This document shows, piece by piece, positions 18,231-27,165 of a stretch of DNA of 64,000 bases. The translations under genes and the position numbers were made by a program. Below the pieces are notes generated by a model. The model worked only from the letters and a program-made list of their open reading frames with translations, had not been told where the DNA came from and searched no databases. The stretch covers positions 448,001 through 512,000 of the forward strand of contig CAWDVR010000003.1 in assembly GCA_963805975.1 (NCBI GenBank). The letters are read 5' to 3'. The stretch's first letter is position 1. Every line of letters begins with the position of its first letter. Origin of the DNA: an uncultured Acidobacteriota bacterium. Lineage in GTDB: Bacteria > Acidobacteriota > Thermoanaerobaculia > Multivoradales > SZUA-115.

Positions 18231-19139
18231 TCAGCACTCTTTGTAGTGGCGCTCCATGGCATGCATCTTCTTGGTCGGTGTATTCAAGCTGTCACCGTAC
18301 CAGTCGGCGAGGTAGGTGGAGCACATCACTTTCTTCGGTGCCAGGTTGCCGACCCATTCGGCACAGCCGTAGGGGCACGGAGGGAGCTCGGCATAGAGCC
18401 AGTCGAGGCTGGCACCGGCCTGGAGAAGGCTCTTTTGGGTCTCAGCACCGTCCGTCTGGTAGAACGTGACTCCTAGCTGCTCGCAAACCTTCTGGAGTGC
18501 GCCGCGCTCGGCGTGGCTGGGTGCGGTTCCGCCGGTATTGCTGCGCGCAGTACCGGTGACCACCTTGCCCTTTTGGCTGGTCGCCTGCGCCATGGCGAAG
18601 CAGCAGAGTGTGCTTCCCTCCTTCTTGCGCAGCGTTCGCACCGGCTGGAGGATCTCGAGATCGGAGGAATCGACCTCCTCGAGCTTGTAACCCTTCCGTA
18701 GCTCGGCTCGTGGCTGCTGGAGGGGCGGCGCGGAGAGCCGGCGGAGGGCGTAGTCCATACAGAAGCTGTGATGTTGCCAGGGGACCTGCTGCTCCTTGAT
18801 CCACTGGAAGACCGCCGGCAGCGAGCCGAGCTGGTCGATCTGCGAGCGGTACCAGCCTTCCAGCTCGTCGTAGTCCGGGATCTGGGGATCCGTGGTGTAG
18901 GTGATCTCCTCCATGCGCTGGATCGTGCGCGAGGGCCACGGCGGCGGCGAGATCACGGGGCGCCAGCCTGCCGGATGCGCGATGCGCGCCCTCATCGGCT
19001 GCGCCGCGGGAGCCAGGGCCCGCGCCAAATGCGGCGCCAGCGGTATGGGAGCGGGAGCCACGGCGGGTTGCCCGACGCTGGCGATCATCCGCGCCACGTG
19101 CGGCGCGAGCGGCCGCGCTGGAGCGGCGTTGGGTTGCAC
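18231..19139 (-). CDS. Zn-dependent nucleic-acid deaminase domain protein (polymorphic-toxin type) with low-complexity N-terminus
   Basis: HAE ... WLYAELPPCPYGCAEW (HxE/PCxxC-type). The frame is open upstream to a CTG at 19217 behind GGAGG, so the start is uncertain. Confidence 0.72.
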   Translation of the reverse strand: MQPNAAPARPLAPHVARMIASVGQPAVAPAPIPLAPHLARALAPAAQPMRARIAHPAGWRPVISPPPWPSRTIQRMEEITYTTDPQIPDYDELEGWYRSQIDQLGSLPAVFQWIKEQQVPWQHHSFCMDYALRRLSAPPLQQPRAELRKGYKLEEVDSSDLEILQPVRTLRKKEGSTLCCFAMAQATSQKGKVVTGTARSNTGGTAPSHAERGALQKVCEQLGVTFYQTDGAETQKSLLQAGASLDWLYAELPPCPYGCAEWVGNLAPKKVMCSTYLADWYGDSLNTPTKKMHAMERHYKEC

Positions 19140-19299: not shown

Positions 19300-20538
19300 T
19301 CAAGGACGCTCTGCCAAGAAATCGAGCATCGTCGCGAGCGTCTCGCGCTCGAGGATCATCTCGAAGTGCGGGCCGTGGAGGTCGAAGGGCGGGTGGGAGA
19401 GGGCAGCGCTCTCCTGGGGCGAGAGAGAGTGCTGGCTGGCCTGGGCGGCGTGGCCGTCGCCGCGGGCCCTGGCGAGGGCCGCGAGCCTCGGCCGCGCCTC
19501 CAGCCAGGGGTCGCCGGTGAAGTGCGTCCGCCAGCGCCCGCCGCTTTCCACGAGCACGGCACGCCAGGGTGTGGGCTCGTCGAGGCTCTGGAGCGAGGCG
19601 TAGCGAGTGGCGCCGAAGGTGGGCGAGTCCGCTGCGAGGAGCTTGCGCAGGCGCCGGGCGCGGTCCAGGGAACGGGTGAGGAGGGCCAGGCGGTCCTCCT
19701 CCGGGCCCAGGAGGTCGAACGGCTTCACCGCCAGGCGTCGCGCCGCCCTCGCGCCCCAGATCGACCAGCCGTAGCGCCGCCAGCTCTCGGCCGCGAAGAG
19801 GTCGATGGCGAGTGGCTGGCCCTCCTCGTCCAGGAAGAGGTCCGCAGGCTCGGTCGGCAGATCCTGGTAGAGCGACGGGAACGTGAACAGGGTCTCCGGC
19901 GCCCAGGTCCGACCGACGAACCCGGCGTAGGAGCGCCCGCGGTTCATCTCGCGGAGGATGCGGAGACTGCCGGCGTTGGAGGTGCCGACCAACAGGAGCT
20001 GCTCGATCACGACGCCGGGGACCGGGGCCGCCCGCCCGGCCTCCGCCTCTTCGAGCGAGGCCGCGCCGTACTTGGCGAGGTACCGGCAGATGCGCTCCCC
20101 GGCCGACTGGCAGATGAGCGCCACCCGCAGCTCGGGGCCGCCGCGCAGCTCGTGGAGTGCCTCGAGCCGCGCGGCGAGCGAGGCCACGGCCTCAAGATTG
20201 TCCTGCCGCCAGTCATAGGGGAAGACGAAGAAGCTCTCACCGGGCTCGGGGTCGAGGAGGTTGCCGGCCGTGAAGCCGTTGGCCTCCAGCAGGCGGACGA
20301 TGGGGCCGTAGACGTCCTTTTTCCACATGCCAAGCGGCAGCGGGATCTCCTCGATGACGTCGAAGGCCGTGACGCTTCGCGGCTTCAGACCGGGCTTCAC
20401 CGGCAGGGCCAGCGCCCTCCCGCCGTCCCGCGGCGAGAACAACCGCGCCGCCGTGCCCCACTCGACGCGGCAGGTCTCCTCGTCGCGAAGCTGCGAGCCC
20501 GTGATCCCCGGTACCAGCACTACCACCCGCTCGCCCAC
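19300..20538 (-). CDS. Alpha/beta hydrolase, LCAT/lipase-acyltransferase-like
   Basis: VVLVPGITGSQL, FPYDWRQD, CQSAG nucleophile elbow, GTSNAGS, GDG near the C-terminus, late His. Confidence 0.78.
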   Translation of the reverse strand: MGERVVVLVPGITGSQLRDEETCRVEWGTAARLFSPRDGGRALALPVKPGLKPRSVTAFDVIEEIPLPLGMWKKDVYGPIVRLLEANGFTAGNLLDPEPGESFFVFPYDWRQDNLEAVASLAARLEALHELRGGPELRVALICQSAGERICRYLAKYGAASLEEAEAGRAAPVPGVVIEQLLLVGTSNAGSLRILREMNRGRSYAGFVGRTWAPETLFTFPSLYQDLPTEPADLFLDEEGQPLAIDLFAAESWRRYGWSIWGARAARRLAVKPFDLLGPEEDRLALLTRSLDRARRLRKLLAADSPTFGATRYASLQSLDEPTPWRAVLVESGGRWRTHFTGDPWLEARPRLAALARARGDGHAAQASQHSLSPQESAALSHPPFDLHGPHFEMILERETLATMLDFLAERP

Positions 20539-20601: not shown

Positions 20602-21237
20602 CTAGAGGCTCACCTCTCCGGCCGGTCTGCTCCGGTTGCGGTAGAGGCTCTCGTCCACGGCACCGATCATCCTTTCGAGGTCCAGGCGGTGGTCGAGGAA
20701 GGCGTTCATGCGCTCGGCCTCGGCGCGGGGGTTGGCGACCACGGCCTTGTAGTCCACGTACAGCACCTCGAACTGCGGCGCGGTGCGCAAGAGGTACTGC
20801 GCCTTCCAGAGGTGGTCCTCGAAGACCTCGGTCATGCGCCCGTCGCCGGCCGCCGGCTCTTCGCCGCGGTGTGCGAGCATCTTCTGCTGCGAGGCCAGCA
20901 CCTCGCCCAGGTCGCGCCGCAGGAAGATCACGCGGTAGTTGTTGGCGGCCGGGAGCTCCTTGAGCAGATAGGAGATGACCTTGATCGCCTTGCCGCGGGC
21001 GGCCCGGAGCCAGCTCTTGTCGGTCTCGTTCGCCAGGTCCTTGACCCGCTCGTGCTCGAAGTAGCCCTTGGGGTTGTCCTCGTCGGCGGTGCGCAGGCCG
21101 TCGGTGTGAGTGACGAGGCCGCCGGCTTCGAGCATCTTCATCGCCATCGAAGTGCCGGAGCGCGGCAGCCCCGAGACCACGACGACCGGCTCGCCGTGGC
21201 GCAGCCGCCGCCAGGTCCGTTGCAGTGGAGAAGCCAT
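20602..21237 (-). CDS. Sulfotransferase family protein
   Basis: VVVSGLPRSGTSM (PAPS-binding loop), DNPKGYFE, RRDLGEVLASQ. Confidence 0.85.
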   Translation of the reverse strand: MASPLQRTWRRLRHGEPVVVVSGLPRSGTSMAMKMLEAGGLVTHTDGLRTADEDNPKGYFEHERVKDLANETDKSWLRAARGKAIKVISYLLKELPAANNYRVIFLRRDLGEVLASQQKMLAHRGEEPAAGDGRMTEVFEDHLWKAQYLLRTAPQFEVLYVDYKAVVANPRAEAERMNAFLDHRLDLERMIGAVDESLYRNRSRPAGEVSL

Positions 21238-21359
21238 CGTCTGGGCCGCTTGATCTGTCGAGGGGCTTGTCGCTACACTCCGAAGGCCGCCCGGCCCGCG
21301 GGCGGACTTTTATAGCACACGCTTCCACGATCCCCTACGCCGCCGCCCCGAGCCCCCGG

Positions 21360-23543
21360 TTGATCGCTCCACCTCGCTCCGTACGACCTCGCCTGCGCGC
21401 CGGATGGCTGCTCGCGGCCGGCTGCGCGCTGGTGGCGGCCTGGGCCCTGCCCGCCCAGGGCTACATCGGCCCCGGCGCCGGTTTCGCGCTGCTGTCGTCG
21501 TTCATGGTGGTCCTCACCACCATCATCCTCGCCTTCCTCTCGCTCCTCATCTGGCCATTCCGCGCTGTCTACCGGCGGCTCTCCCGCGGCAAGGCTCCCA
21601 GGCCGGTGATCAAGCGGATGATCGTGGTCGGTTTCGACGGCCAGGAGCCCAAGCTCACCGACCGCTGGATGGCCGAGGGCAAGCTCCCCAACTTCAAGCG
21701 GCTGGCCGAGATGGGCTGCTACCGGCGGCTGCGCTCCACCTACCCGTCGATCTCGCCGGTGGCTTGGTCCTCGTTCTCGACCGGCACGCACCCGGCCAAG
21801 CACAACATCTTCGACTTCCTGGACCGCGACCGCCGCACCTACCTGCCGATGCTGTCCTCGACCCACATCGGCGGCGTCGACAAGTTCTTGAAGATCGGCA
21901 AGTGGAAGATCCCGCTCGGCAAGCCGGACATCCGCCTGCTGCGGCGCTCGACGCCGTTCTGGACGCTCTTGGGCGAGCGCGGCATCTGGAGCACGGTGCT
22001 CCGCGTGCCCATCACCTTCCCGCCGGACAAGTTCTACGGCGCCGAGCTCTCGGCCATGGCGGTACCGGACCTCCTGGGCACGCAGGGCACGTTCCTGCTC
22101 TACACCACGCGACCGGCGCGCAAGTTCAAGGAGGGCGGCATCCGGGTGGGCCTCGAGCCGGCCGCAGGATCGAACGGCGCGCGGTTCGAGACCCGGATCG
22201 ACGGCCCGGAGAACTCCTTCCTCGAAGGCAGCCCGCCGCCGCCGCTCTCGGTGCCGATGGCGATCGAGCTCGATCGCGCCGCGGGAACCGCGAAGGTGAA
22301 GATCGGCGACGAGGACGAGCTGACCTTGAAGCCGAGCCAGCTCAGCGGCTGGGTGACCCTCCCCTTCAAGGCCGCGCCCGCCGTCAAGGTGAAAGGCATC
22401 TGCCGCTTCCAGGTGCTGGAGATGGGCGAGCACTTCTCGCTCTACCTGTCACCGATCAACATCGATCCCGACTCGCCGGCCATGCCCATCGCCCACCCGT
22501 CCTACTACGCCACCTACCTGGCGAAGAAGCTCGGCCCCTTCGCCACGCTGGGGCTGGCGGAGGACACGTGGTCGCTCAACGAAGGCGTGGTGGACGACGG
22601 CACCTTCCTGCAGCAGGCCCTGGACATCGACGACGAGCGCCGGGGGATGTTCTTCGCGGCGCTCGACCGCCTGCGCAAGGGCTCGCTGGTCTGCGTGTTC
22701 GACGCCACGGACCGCGTGCAGCACATGTTCTGGCGCTATCTCGAGAAGGGCCACCCGGCGACCCAGGGCAAAGAGGCGGGGCCGCACGCCAACGCCATCG
22801 AGGAGCTGTACCAGCGAAACGACGCGCTGGTCGGCCAGGTGATGAAGAAGCTCAGGAAGGGCGACCTCCTGATCGTCTGCTCGGACCACGGCTTCACCTC
22901 CTTCCGCCGCGGCGTCAACCTGAACGGCTGGCTGCTCGCGAACGGATACCTGGCGCTCAAGGAAGGCGCGGACGGCTCGGGCGAGTGGCTGGCCGACGTG
23001 GACTGGTCGAAGACCCGCGCCTATGCGCTGGGCCTCACCGGCATGTTCCTCAACCTGAAGGGCCGCGAGGCGCAGGGCATCGTCGAGCCGGGCGCGGAGG
23101 CCGAGGCGCTCAAGGCCGAGATCCTCCGCAAGATGTCCGGTCTGAAGGACACGGAGAAGAGCGAGATCGGCATCAACGAGGTGTTCGACACCGCCAAGCT
23201 CTATAGCGGCCCGTACCTCGAGAACGCGCCGGACTTCATCGTCGGCTACAACCACGGCTACCGCGTGTCGTGGGACTGCGCGAGCGGCATGGTGGCGGGG
23301 CCCGTCTTCGAGGACAACGTGAAGGCGTGGAGCGGCGACCACTGCGTGGACCCGCGGATCGTGCCCGGCGTGCTGTTCTCGAGCCACGCGATCGACGACG
23401 ACGACCCGGCGCTGATGGATCTCGCGCCCACGGCGCTCCGCCTGTTCGGCCTGGAGCCGCCCAAGCACATGGACGGCAAGCCGCTGTTCAAGCCCGGGCC
23501 GCTCGAGACGGACCCGTTCGCGAAGCCGGTGGTGGCGGGATGA
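21360..23543 (+). CDS. AlkP-superfamily (type I phosphodiesterase/NPP-like) membrane-anchored enzyme with N-terminal YIGPG segment
   Basis: GFDG, LRSTYPSISPVAWSSFSTG, TDRVQH, SDHGF, WSGDH. Start placed at TTG 21360 before the signal-like segment; the ORF is open from 21225. Confidence 0.85.
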   Translation: MIAPPRSVRPRLRAGWLLAAGCALVAAWALPAQGYIGPGAGFALLSSFMVVLTTIILAFLSLLIWPFRAVYRRLSRGKAPRPVIKRMIVVGFDGQEPKLTDRWMAEGKLPNFKRLAEMGCYRRLRSTYPSISPVAWSSFSTGTHPAKHNIFDFLDRDRRTYLPMLSSTHIGGVDKFLKIGKWKIPLGKPDIRLLRRSTPFWTLLGERGIWSTVLRVPITFPPDKFYGAELSAMAVPDLLGTQGTFLLYTTRPARKFKEGGIRVGLEPAAGSNGARFETRIDGPENSFLEGSPPPPLSVPMAIELDRAAGTAKVKIGDEDELTLKPSQLSGWVTLPFKAAPAVKVKGICRFQVLEMGEHFSLYLSPINIDPDSPAMPIAHPSYYATYLAKKLGPFATLGLAEDTWSLNEGVVDDGTFLQQALDIDDERRGMFFAALDRLRKGSLVCVFDATDRVQHMFWRYLEKGHPATQGKEAGPHANAIEELYQRNDALVGQVMKKLRKGDLLIVCSDHGFTSFRRGVNLNGWLLANGYLALKEGADGSGEWLADVDWSKTRAYALGLTGMFLNLKGREAQGIVEPGAEAEALKAEILRKMSGLKDTEKSEIGINEVFDTAKLYSGPYLENAPDFIVGYNHGYRVSWDCASGMVAGPVFEDNVKAWSGDHCVDPRIVPGVLFSSHAIDDDDPALMDLAPTALRLFGLEPPKHMDGKPLFKPGPLETDPFAKPVVAG

Positions 23544-25501
23544 GGGGCAGGGTAAGGGTCTCTGCCCTTGCGGCGCTCGGTCTCGCGCTTCTCACTCTCG
23601 CCGCCTGCGGCAGGAAGCACGACGCCAACGGCCCGCGCATGATCGTGCTCGGCTTCGACGGCATGGACTATGCGCTGACGCAGAAGCTCATGGCCGAGGG
23701 GCGGCTCCCGAACCTCGCCAAGCTGGCGGCGGAGGGCGGCTTCCAGTCGCTCGCCACCGCCGTGCCGCCGCAGAGCCCGGTCGCCTGGTCGAACTTCATC
23801 ACCGGCCTCGACGCCGGCGGTCACGGCATCTTCGACTTCATCCACCGCGACCCCAACACCATGACCCCCTACCTCTCGACCAGCCACACCGAGGCGGCGG
23901 GGAACGTGGTCAAGATCGGCAAGTACCAGTTCCCGCTCTCCGGCGGCAGGGTGGAGCTGCTGCGCCACGGCCAGCCGTTCTGGGACGTGCTCGAAGCGCA
24001 CGGCGTCGAGACCACCGTGGTGCGCATGCCGGCGAACTTTCCGCCCTCGGAGAAAGCGACGCGCGAGCTCTCCGGCATGGGCACGCCGGACATCCTCGGA
24101 ACGCCCGGCACCTTCACCTTCTACACCTCGGAGCTCTTCGCCTACTACGGCAAGCAGGTTTCGGGCGGCGAGGTGCACGAGGTCTTCGTCGAGGACGGCA
24201 TGGTCAAGGCCCAGCTCTACGGGCCGAACAACCCCTTCCTCTTGAAGTCCGAGAAGGTGGCGGCCGACTTCACGGCGGTGATCGACCCGGTGGAGCCGGT
24301 GGTCAAGCTCAGCGTGGGCGACGAGCAGCGGGTGCTGAAAGTAGGGGAGTGGAGCGACTGGGTGCCGGTCGACTTCAAGCTCATCCCCACCCAGAACCTG
24401 CGCGGCATCTGCCGCTTCTATTTGAAGTCTTTGCAGCCGGAGTTCCAGCTCTTCGTCTCGCCGATCAACTTCGACCCGCTCGCCCCGGCGCTGCCGCTCT
24501 CGCACCCGGAGGACTACGCGGCCGAGCTGGCGGAGGCCACGGGCCGCTTCTATACCCAGGAGATGCCGGAGGACACCAAGGCCTACAAGGAAGGCATCTT
24601 CTCGACCGACGAGTTCCTGACCCAGGCGCGCTACGTGGTCGACCACATGATCGAGCAGTACGACTACGTGCTCTCCCAGTACAGCTCGGGCCTGCTGTTC
24701 TACTACTTCGGCAACACCGACCAGGTGGCACACATGATGTGGCGCACCCTGGACCCCGGCCACCCGGCCTACAGCGCCGAGAAGGACGGGCCGTACGAGG
24801 ACGTGATCCCGGCGCTCTACGAGAAGTTCGACGGCATCGTCGGCCGGACCCGCGAGCGGATGCCCGCCGGCACCATGCTGGTGGTGATGTCCGACCACGG
24901 CTTTTCTTCCTGGCGCCGGGCGGTACACCTCAACTCCTGGCTGCGCGACAACGGCTACCTCGTGCCGCTCGATCCCGGCCGCAAGACCGACGCCGGCTAC
25001 TTCTCGAACGTCGACTGGACGAAGACGCGCGCCTACGCCCTGGGCCTGAACGGCCTCTACGTCAACCTCAGAGGGCGCGAGAAGAACGGCATCGTCGAGT
25101 CGACCGATCGCCTGCCGCTGATGAAGGAGATCGCCGGCAAGCTCCTCGCGCTCACCGATCCCAAGACCGGCGAGCGGGCCGTCACCAAGGCCTACCTCCG
25201 CGAAGAGGTCTACCAGGACCGGGAGTACATCGAGATCGGCGCCGACATCCAGGTCGGCTACGCCAAGACCTACCGCGGCTCGAACGAGTCGGCCCTGGGC
25301 GGCATGACCGAGGAGCAGTTCACGGACAACCTGAGCGCCTGGAGCGGCGACCACTGCATGGACCACGAGGCCGTGCCCGGCGTGCTGTTCACGAGCCGCA
25401 AGCTCCGGAAGCCGGCCACCAGCCTGAAAGACCTGGCGGCCTCGATCCTCACCGAGTTCGGAGTGGAAGGGTTTCCGCTGCGGGAGCGCCGCTCGCCCTA
25501 G
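23540..25501 (+). CDS. Second AlkP-superfamily enzyme, predicted lipoprotein; paralog of the upstream gene
   Basis: ATGA overlap; LTLAAC lipobox; GFDG, PPQSPVAWSNFITG, TDQVAH, SDHGF, WSGDH. Confidence 0.87.
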   Translation: MRGRVRVSALAALGLALLTLAACGRKHDANGPRMIVLGFDGMDYALTQKLMAEGRLPNLAKLAAEGGFQSLATAVPPQSPVAWSNFITGLDAGGHGIFDFIHRDPNTMTPYLSTSHTEAAGNVVKIGKYQFPLSGGRVELLRHGQPFWDVLEAHGVETTVVRMPANFPPSEKATRELSGMGTPDILGTPGTFTFYTSELFAYYGKQVSGGEVHEVFVEDGMVKAQLYGPNNPFLLKSEKVAADFTAVIDPVEPVVKLSVGDEQRVLKVGEWSDWVPVDFKLIPTQNLRGICRFYLKSLQPEFQLFVSPINFDPLAPALPLSHPEDYAAELAEATGRFYTQEMPEDTKAYKEGIFSTDEFLTQARYVVDHMIEQYDYVLSQYSSGLLFYYFGNTDQVAHMMWRTLDPGHPAYSAEKDGPYEDVIPALYEKFDGIVGRTRERMPAGTMLVVMSDHGFSSWRRAVHLNSWLRDNGYLVPLDPGRKTDAGYFSNVDWTKTRAYALGLNGLYVNLRGREKNGIVESTDRLPLMKEIAGKLLALTDPKTGERAVTKAYLREEVYQDREYIEIGADIQVGYAKTYRGSNESALGGMTEEQFTDNLSAWSGDHCMDHEAVPGVLFTSRKLRKPATSLKDLAASILTEFGVEGFPLRERRSP

Positions 25502-25520
25502 CGGCACCAAGGAGTAAGCG

Positions 25521-25715
25521 ATGTTTGGAACCGTCAAGATAAAGCTCGACAAGGAACTGGTCGAGCGGGTGAAGAAAGTGAGCGACGTGGCCGGGTACTC
25601 CTCGCCCGAGGAGTTCATCACCCATGCGCTCGAAAAGGAGCTGGCGAAGCTCGAGGACGCCGGCTCCGAAGAAGAGATGAAGAAGCGCCTGCGCGGTCTC
25701 GGCTACATCTCCTGA
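25521..25715 (+). CDS. 64-aa ribbon-helix-helix-like protein ending in KKRLRGLGYIS
   Basis: AAGGAG RBS; VKIKLDKELVERVKKV...GYSSPEEFITHALEKEL (RHH pattern). Confidence 0.82.
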   Translation: MFGTVKIKLDKELVERVKKVSDVAGYSSPEEFITHALEKELAKLEDAGSEEEMKKRLRGLGYIS

Positions 25716-25719
25716 GGCG

Positions 25720-26568
25720 ATGTCCACCGTCAACGCCCTGCTGCGCCCGCTGTTCGACGCGTTGCTCTCCCCCTTCGCGGGCCTGCCCGCCTGGGCGGGG
25801 CTGGCGGTGGTGTCCCTCGTCGTCTCGGTGCTGATGCTCCTGGTCTACAAGCGGTTCTCGAACCAGGCCAAGCTCGAGGAGGTCAAGCGCCAGATCTACG
25901 CCGGCATCTTCGAGATCCGCCTGTTCAACGACGACTTCCGCGCCATCTTCCGGGCCCAGGGCGAGATCCTGCGCCACAACCTGCGCTATCTGGGCTACTC
26001 GCTGGTGCCCATGGCGTGGATGCTGGTGCCGCTGCTGCTGATCGTGGCGCAGCTCCAGTTCCACTACGGCTACGAGGGTCTGAAGCCGGGCGAGCCGACG
26101 CTGCTCACGGTCAAGCTCAAAGAGGACTGGAGCAGCCGTTCGCTGGCGGCCGACGCCACGGGCAAGCCGCGGGTGACCCTGGAGGCGCCGGCGGGCTTCA
26201 CGGTGGAGACCCCGGCGGTGTGGTCGCCGTCCGAGAAGGAGCTCGCCTGGCGGGTGGTGGCGGAGCGTCCGGGAAGCTACGAGCTGAAGCTCCAGGCCGG
26301 CGGCGAGCCGCTCGCCAAGTCCGCCGTCAGCGCGGACGAGATCATCCGCCGCTCGCCGATCCGGGTCGGTACGAGCTTCTTCGATCAGCTCCTCTACCCG
26401 GCGGAGGACCCGGTGCCCGCCGCGAGCGCCGTCGAGTCCATCACTCTCGGCTACCCCGAGGCCGAGGTCAGCCTCTTCGGCTGGAACACGCACTGGATCA
26501 TCGCGTTCCTCATCCTCACGATCGTCTTCGCCTTTGCCCTGAAGGGGTTGTTCGGGGTGACGATCTAG
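25720..26568 (+). CDS. Membrane protein, DUF106/EMC3-TMCO1 (Oxa1 superfamily)-like, with a beta-rich extracytoplasmic insert
   Basis: Amphipathic N-helix, TM1, SNQAKLEEVK helical hairpin, SLVPMAWMLVPLLLI TM2, soluble domain, C-terminal TM. Confidence 0.65.
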   Translation: MSTVNALLRPLFDALLSPFAGLPAWAGLAVVSLVVSVLMLLVYKRFSNQAKLEEVKRQIYAGIFEIRLFNDDFRAIFRAQGEILRHNLRYLGYSLVPMAWMLVPLLLIVAQLQFHYGYEGLKPGEPTLLTVKLKEDWSSRSLAADATGKPRVTLEAPAGFTVETPAVWSPSEKELAWRVVAERPGSYELKLQAGGEPLAKSAVSADEIIRRSPIRVGTSFFDQLLYPAEDPVPAASAVESITLGYPEAEVSLFGWNTHWIIAFLILTIVFAFALKGLFGVTI

Positions 26569-26576
26569 CGCTCTGA

Positions 26577-26605
26577 TTGACGCCTCGCTCGTGGCGGAGT
26601 ATGTT
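26577..26605 (+). promoter_or_regulatory. Sigma-70 promoter of the mazEF-like operon (probably leaderless)
   Basis: TTGACG-N17-TATGTT; ATG at 26612 with no RBS. Confidence 0.6.
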
Positions 26606-26611
26606 CACGGT

Positions 26612-26842
26612 ATGAAGTTGAAGACATCCGTCACACTTTCAGAAGAGACAGTCCGAGCGCTCGACGAGATCGCGGGCCCGGGCGGGAACCGCTCGCGGGT
26701 CATCGAGGAAGCGATGGGCGAGTTCGTGCGGCGCCGGAGCCGAGAGCTGCGCGATACGCGTGACCTCGAGATCATCAACCGCAACGCCGAGCAGCTCAAC
26801 CGCGAGGTCGAGGACATCCTGGCCTACCAGACGGAGCCGTGA
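26612..26842 (+). CDS. RHH antitoxin of a MazF/PemK-type TA module
   Basis: [32 protein letters not shown]; GTGA overlap with the toxin gene. Confidence 0.85.
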
Positions 26843-27165
26843 GGCGCGGAGACCTCTATCGCGTCCGCCGGCCGGGTGGAGGTGATCCCAAGAAGAGCCG
26901 GGTCTTCGTCATCGTCAGCCGCGAGGCGCTCGTCGAGTCCCGGTTCTCCACCGTGATCTGTGCTCCGGTGCTCAGCCAGCGCGATGGGCTCGCCACTCAG
27001 GTGGACGTCGGCCCGGACGATGGGTTGAAGCATGCCTCGAGCATCCACTGCGACGCGCTCGTCAGCCTCCCGAAATCGGTACTCACGGACTACGTGAGCT
27101 CCCTCGGTCCAGGGAGCATCCGCGCCCTGGACCGAGCGCTTCGCATTGCCCTTGCTGTGGAGTGA
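26839..27165 (+). CDS. mazF: MazF/PemK family endoribonuclease toxin
   Basis: [39 protein letters not shown]. Confidence 0.9.

Follow-up and report, generated by a model that had tools for sequence, protein, structure and literature searches.

How sulfate could reach exported enzymes is a question raised by bacteria in which the donor 3'-phosphoadenosine 5'-phosphosulfate (PAPS) is cytoplasmic, yet many exported sulfatase-fold proteins of the non-formylglycine type and aryl sulfotransferases are encoded. We addressed it through a cassette of five genes in a 64,000-nucleotide stretch of DNA from an uncultured Acidobacteriota bacterium (hereafter the window; GCA_963805975.1, contig CAWDVR010000003.1, positions 448,001 to 512,000), encoding a sulfotransferase (ST), two alkaline phosphatase-superfamily enzymes (AlkP1 and AlkP2), a small ribbon-helix-helix (RHH)-like protein and an Oxa1-like membrane protein. 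The cassette is a real, conserved and undescribed system tied to sulfate; its parts come from known folds, and a described system with the same composition was not found. Some form of sulfate relay across the membrane is probable, and, judging from sequence features, we tentatively favor, with slightly less than even confidence, one in which tyrosines carry the sulfate from cytoplasmic PAPS to exported transferases bearing an LxxLGY tag. The initial annotation of the locus knew of no characterised pathway with this gene set, and neither did we find one described; a literature search on the gene set, the tag or a sulfate relay returned nothing relevant, with most subscription journals outside its coverage.

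The initial annotation had made its proposal of a dedicated system depend on recurrence of the genes elsewhere, and they co-occur widely in the 59 loci, 41 order-level relatives and 301 genomes of the phylum that were covered. Among the 59 loci, found via the membrane gene, the small gene is present in 56, AlkP1 in 55, AlkP2 in 54 and ST in 47; most misses lie at contig ends, and about 20 of the loci are close kin. Strong matches to all five genes fall in the same 17 of the 41 relatives. Across the phylum, the membrane gene occurs in 86 of 301 genomes (one match in 85, three partial matches in one), and its protein family comprises 1178 clusters at E <= 1e-30. When 40 of these 86 loci were chosen for diversity, the small tagged gene was found in all 40, an exported-type AlkP in 39 and AlkP1 in 35, while ST lay upstream or downstream, divergent or co-directional. 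The closest named loci are mostly from Acidobacteriota, including Thermoanaerobaculia, and neither a glycosyltransferase nor a lipid enzyme is among the constant neighbours of the cassette in the loci surveyed.

The link to sulfate begins with ST itself, which matches PF13469 (E 4.5e-11; PF13469 and PF00685 are both over the cut-off) and carries the marks of a PAPS sulfotransferase, namely a 5'-phosphosulfate-binding loop, PRSGTS, and the 3'-phosphate-binding residues R108 and S116, all invariant. It is fused to AlkP1 in 41 of the best 120 longer ST homologues, in the order ST, hydrophobic helix, A-x-A|Y-I-G-P-G, second helix, AlkP1; in five of the fused loci, AlkP2, the membrane gene and the small gene are present as well, and the remaining ones are truncated. 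Further fusions join AlkP, tag, tetratricopeptide repeats (TPR) and ST, or CysC, ST and tag. Within about 10 kb of the cassette, CysC is found in 24 of the 59 loci, arranged in no fewer than four ways, and Sat in 23. APS (adenosine 5'-phosphosulfate) kinase is encoded in 84 of the 86 cassette genomes, including those of 1.9 Mb, versus 98 of the 215 others (kin are not independent in this comparison). Five loci that lack ST contain a third AlkP, a second tagged RHH protein, Sat and CysC. The initial annotation had left open whether a sulfate or a phospho group is moved; the distributions of APS kinase and CysC make sulfate most likely. In addition, at loci without ST its place is often taken by a soluble AlkP, and the two never occur together, either in the 40 phylum loci (20 with ST versus 7 with the soluble AlkP) or in 78 metagenome loci (31 versus 2). 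We also observed a short soluble sulfatase-fold protein with the motif W-T-x-P-S-H in the usual place of ST (L164, L167, L177, L181, L186, L201, L203 and L205), often between Sat and CysC, and this is possibly a third kind of loading enzyme.

AlkP1 and AlkP2 share 40% identity over 618 residues, match PF01663 over the cut-off (AlkP1 E 1e-29) and both contain the motifs SPVAW, GFDG, D-x3-H (DRVQH / DQVAH), SDHG and GDH reported in the initial annotation, whose residues do not vary across 20 AlkP1 rows. The two-metal ligand set is complete: D59, D417, H421, D475, H476 and H627 are invariant in AlkP1, and their equivalents are invariant in 69 rows. The nearest folds to a predicted AlkP1 structure are PhnA, NPP, SPAP and PafA at TM-scores <= 0.39, low values explained by a mediocre model (pLDDT 69). 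NPP proper uses a Thr nucleophile followed by Asn; SPVAW in both cassette enzymes sets them apart from that group and, in place of C/S-x-P-x-R, from the formylglycine sulfatases. Sequence searches of the PDB with AlkP2 or with ST alone gave no match.

The N terminus of AlkP1 consists of a signal-like helix, a transmembrane (TM) helix and a basic stretch, with the catalytic domain predicted to be cytoplasmic. A tyrosine follows the predicted signal-peptidase site in 109 of 109 motif sites, although that position was left free in the pattern, and Ala precedes it in 104 of them; the ST-AlkP1 fusions keep this tyrosine, with A-x-A in 40 of 41. Signal peptidase is predicted to cleave directly before the tyrosine. 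The order of domains in the fusions places the AlkP1 active site on the side of ST, presumably the cytoplasm, with the tyrosine probably on the outer face. AlkP2 has a lipobox, LAAC, and its orthologues appear Tat-like in 20 and lipoproteins in 10 of the 40 phylum loci, according to a crude regular expression with some errors. The suggestion that the two AlkPs face different sides of the membrane is therefore borne out by prediction, from the fusions and the lipoprotein and Tat signals, whereas a heterodimer of their catalytic domains, proposed alongside it, finds no support, because the domains would lie on opposite faces. The same arrangement could serve a pair of hydrolases, one on each side, for the recycling of PAP, APS or products of envelope turnover that bear sulfate or phosphate. 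Their nearest folds are hydrolases, and the fused homologues bear the JGI name 'phosphohydrolase/phosphomutase', but CysQ-like genes already stand beside the cassette in 16 of the 59 loci, and a hydrolase would need neither a dedicated Oxa1-like partner nor the ST fusion nor invariant tyrosines; we regard recycling as very improbable.

The membrane protein alone has no Pfam match. A profile of 37 family members matches MJ0480 (5C8J) with E 1.6e-10 over TM1, the coiled coil and TM2, and PF01956 is weakly detected in 11 of the 37. Its predicted structure (pLDDT 91) has three TM helices and an inserted beta-sandwich; Foldseek returned Ig-like domains only, and among the VIA rows that cover both ends are 7tut_8 (Z 8.8), YidC (3wo7) and 6ww7_C, at Z values that are not decisive for helical proteins. 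By its family profile, then, the protein is a member of the DUF106 branch of the Oxa1 superfamily, as initially annotated, with putative insertase or scramblase activity. Since a canonical YidC is encoded elsewhere in the same genome, the cassette copy is an extra one. In P0184 and P0220, a sulfotransferase is fused to a segment resembling the outer Ig-like part of this protein.

The small protein matches RHH_1 below the cut-off (E 0.005), and its Atlas neighbours are automatically named CopG. Its C-terminal end reads EEEMKKRLRGLGYIS, in which L57, L60, G61 and Y62 are invariant in 22 rows; this LxxLGY tag and the invariant tyrosine of AlkP1 had both escaped the initial annotation. Of the 4127 called proteins of the genome, only 13 have LxxLGY within their final 25 residues; ten of these are sulfatase-like, and the small protein is one of the remaining three. 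Among the 27 PF00884 genes, the tag is found on none of the 7 with CxPxR versus 18 of the 20 without it (16 exact, one LSY variant, one past a frameshift; two have none), a split by nucleophile type with a Fisher probability of 4e-5, for which paralogues are not independent. Most of the tagged sulfatase-like proteins contain a signal or TM segment, with Thr in the position of the nucleophile, mostly within T-x-P-S-H; they lack the formylglycine motif C/S-x-P-x-R, and several are encoded among glycosyltransferases. Two sulfatase-family genes of this genome (L087:4434-6432 and G000:C3:728207-729608) are split by apparent frameshifts. None of the 60 solved sulfatases among the matches listed aligns through the tag. 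It also ends CysC proteins, the CysC-ST fusions and a second RHH protein, and is internal in the AlkP-TPR-ST fusions. A variant, L-x-x-L-[PGA]-Y, stands near the N terminus in 88 of 120 aryl sulfotransferase homologues versus 63 of 2903 background proteins, the Tyr being fixed while the Gly position varies. Because profiles of the small protein and the tagged sulfatases align only over the 15-residue tag (probability 18.5), the link between them is one of motif counts and not of homology statistics.

Relatives without the cassette have a substitute for it. In 24 of the 41 relatives, always the same ones, a solo exported AlkP with a Thr nucleophile accompanies a degenerate AlkP of about five TM helices that is tagged at both ends; 23 of the 24 cassette-negative relatives hold this pair, one genome holds both systems and one neither. 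The solo AlkP usually lies beside genes that we take to be envC/ctpA-like. When the whole AlkP family was compared with the tagged enzymes, 181 of the 301 phylum genomes had both, 108 neither, and 12 were discordant, an agreement of 289/301; tagged enzymes were counted by a profile threshold of E <= 1e-85 rather than by checking tags gene by gene, and kin are not independent. Omitting one unpublished genome (G062) leaves 180 with both.

These distributions bear on the view, close to that of the initial annotation, that the tag serves docking or oligomerisation in a self-contained machine sulfating or remodelling one envelope molecule, with the RHH protein as scaffold or regulator. An amphipathic acidic helix shared by many folds would suit docking, as would the RHH-like core, and the P-loop sulfotransferases in a polysaccharide locus of the same genome need no relay. 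Yet this leaves unexplained both the match between AlkP family and tagged enzymes and the clean split of the tag by nucleophile type, and no conserved operator was detected in the divergent gap, where 7-mers in 21 loci did not exceed shuffles, a weak test. We consider it improbable. A pathway decorating one glycan itself (the initial proposal named a surface glycan or lipid) is likewise disfavored by the want of a constant glycosyltransferase neighbour and by an AlkP family that tracks dispersed, tagged, exported enzymes. The polysaccharide locus just mentioned (L072; G000:C6:244001-262000) contains Sat-CysC, CysQ, two P-loop sulfotransferases, a flippase and an O-antigen ligase-like gene, together with an aryl sulfotransferase carrying the N-terminal variant LQALPY, and is a candidate client locus.

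The group loaded by the AlkP family could instead be a phospho group, such as a phospholipid head group, that loads or matures the tagged enzymes, with the sulfate genes as an addition of the cassette form. The bimetal NPP-like site would suit this, as would the Thr nucleophiles of the tagged enzymes, which we take to resemble those of LtaS/EptA-type phosphotransferases, and 44 of the 98 genomes with the solo AlkP only are without APS kinase. Against it stand the near-universal APS kinase of cassette genomes, the ST fusions and the tags on CysC and aryl sulfotransferases, and we judge phospho loading to be quite unlikely.

The relay that we favor would proceed as follows. ST would sulfate Tyr62 in the tail of the small protein with PAPS as the donor, and AlkP1, facing the cytoplasm, would take the sulfate onto its active-site Ser. 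The sulfate would then pass to the invariant N-terminal tyrosine of mature AlkP1, which would span the bilayer via a hydrophilic groove of the dedicated Oxa1-like protein. Periplasmic AlkP2 would accept it and load the tag tyrosine of the Thr-type sulfatase-fold proteins and of the aryl sulfotransferases, and the loaded enzymes would sulfate envelope glycans or lipids. Most economically, the AlkP family in general would load the tag, and the cassette form would bring in the load from PAPS. The proposal draws on the gene set, motifs, fusions and distributions, from which we infer each chemical step. A complex prediction of AlkP1 with two Zn and the last 30 residues of the small protein scored 0.06, the mark being 0.32.

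The crossing is the weakest step, and here a lipid might be the carrier: AlkP1 would load a lipid of the inner leaflet, the Oxa1-like protein would scramble it outward, AlkP2 would unload it, and the tag would only dock. Oxa1-family proteins are described as scrambling lipids (PMC11047089). In the solo AlkP, a hairpin of two TM helices directly follows the nucleophile region and suggests a membrane-facing active site, and in 5 of 20 alternative loci a polyprenyl synthase adjoins the partner that is tagged at both ends; the evidence for the sulfate link fits equally. However, a lipid carrier gives no role to the outer-face tyrosine of AlkP1 or to a tag whose Tyr is fixed while its Gly varies, and the cassette has no lipid enzyme as a constant neighbour in the loci surveyed; a lipid carrier seems rather unlikely to us.

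Several observations weigh against the tyrosine-carried relay. The top PDB matches of ST by profile are TPST2 and TPST1, but at E >= 0.0015 and over profile positions 10-37 only; likeness to tyrosylprotein sulfotransferases is weak and confined to the P-loop (E 0.0015). AlkP2 is absent from the cassette at a few loci (L022, L030 and L266), and neither ST nor the soluble AlkP lies nearby in 13 of the 40 phylum loci. Tagged enzymes are present in all 41 order-level relatives, 24 of them without the cassette; the test for co-occurrence within the order thus failed, and what tracks the tagged enzymes is the wider AlkP family, not the cassette as such. APS kinase is found in only 54 of the 98 genomes with the solo AlkP only (54 of 97 without G062), which means that the link between tag system and PAPS does not hold everywhere. 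Simple docking could also be all that the tag helix does. Finally, a two-metal NPP/PhnA-type site favors phosphoryl over sulfuryl transfer, which keeps the phospho and hydrolase explanations alive.

The layout of the locus agrees with the initial annotation as to the gene set, its tight coupling and a divergent ST about 120 bp away. The plus-strand junctions are, in order, an ATGA overlap, a 19-nt gap and a 4-nt gap. The open reading frame of AlkP1 has no ATG start; an in-frame TTG is its probable start and leaves the divergent gap listed below. All five genes are single-copy in the genome, and NCBIfam gave no match over the cut-off for the cassette proteins. Downstream of ST lies an LCAT-like alpha/beta hydrolase gene, and directly after the cassette a MazEF-like toxin-antitoxin pair (RHH antitoxin and PemK toxin); both were rejected as cassette parts because, among 60 loci, they flank the cassette in this genome only. 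A further minus-strand gene encodes a protein that begins with low-complexity sequence and resembles deaminases in its C-terminal domain (PF00383, below the cut-off).

Table 1. Coordinates of the cassette, of flanking genes (window positions) and of the substitute system (positions within each locus).
Feature	Position	Strand	Details
Sulfotransferase (ST)	20602..21237	-	211 aa; without TM or signal, predicted cytoplasmic
Divergent intergenic region ST/AlkP1	21238..21359	.	122 nt
AlkP1, NPP/PhnA-like bimetal enzyme	21360..23543	+	Ser-nucleophile codon 21753-21755; probable TTG start at 21360
YIGPGAG, candidate outer-face N-terminal Tyr of AlkP1	21462..21482	+	after predicted signal-peptidase site
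AlkP2, exported paralogue	23540..25501	+	lipobox Cys 23606-23608; Ser nucleophile 23774-23776
Small RHH-like protein	25521..25715	+	64 aa; terminal LxxLGY tag on acidic helix; Tyr62 = 25704-25706
Membrane protein, 3-TM Oxa1-superfamily (MJ0480/DUF106/EMC3-like)	25720..26568	+	cytoplasmic coiled coil, inserted Ig-like outer domain
Deaminase-like protein	18231-19139	-
LCAT-like alpha/beta hydrolase	19300-20538	-
MazEF-like pair	26591-27165
Substitute system, five-TM tagged genes	L104:1058-2881, L107:10374-12221, L109:3724-5532, L110:11736-13553, L113:2116-3927		solo AlkPs in L103-L122

If correct, the relay would name the sulfate donor of exported surface-modifying enzymes, re-annotate many supposed hydrolases, a large family, as transferases, provide a sulfate counterpart of tyrosine acyl shuttles and show that a DUF106-type insertase in bacteria can have a role beyond the general insertion of proteins. 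In its fullest form, the proposal is of a 'sulfo-carrier' system, widespread and so far undescribed, in which LxxLGY would be a portable sulfotyrosine arm; the cassette would relay sulfuryl groups across the membrane by means of a repurposed archaeal-type insertase and an N-terminal tyrosine made by signal peptidase, and so charge an entire class of misannotated periplasmic 'sulfatases' and aryl sulfotransferases; this more speculative version we hold to be possible, with about one chance in three.

Among known systems, the closest in logic are the MBOAT-SGNH tyrosine shuttles, which carry acetyl groups across membranes; in PatA/PatB, an invariant tyrosine of a peptide carries the group from a cytoplasmic donor across to an outer enzyme, which takes it up (PMC12148441). 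The likeness is of logic only: that group is acetyl, not sulfate, and none of the five cassette genes has an MBOAT or SGNH Pfam match. Sulfate transfer by the AlkP/sulfatase fold has a precedent in Agl30 and Agl31 of Halobacterium salinarum, which act as glycan sulfotransferases; the portions of that paper covered do not name the donor, and 'PAPS' has 0 occurrences in its main text (PMC11980604). Aryl sulfotransferases are periplasmic and PAPS-independent, using only aryl sulfates as donors, and their natural substrate has been unknown for more than 40 years (PMC13426309); the homologues here, with their tag-like Tyr helix, would be clients of the cassette and not parts of it. The cassette AlkPs share PF01663, the two-metal ligands and the nearest folds with the NPP/PhnA/PafA branch of the alkaline phosphatase superfamily, from which they differ in a Ser-PVAW nucleophile, large insertions, the lack of a PDB sequence match and their pairing across the membrane. 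The DUF106/EMC3/TMCO1 branch is treated as archaeal and eukaryotic in one study (PMC8675477). Like MJ0480, EMC3 and TMCO1, the membrane protein has three TM helices and a cytoplasmic coiled coil; unlike archaeal MJ0480, it is bacterial, additional to YidC, equipped with an Ig-like outer insert and fixed in an enzyme operon.

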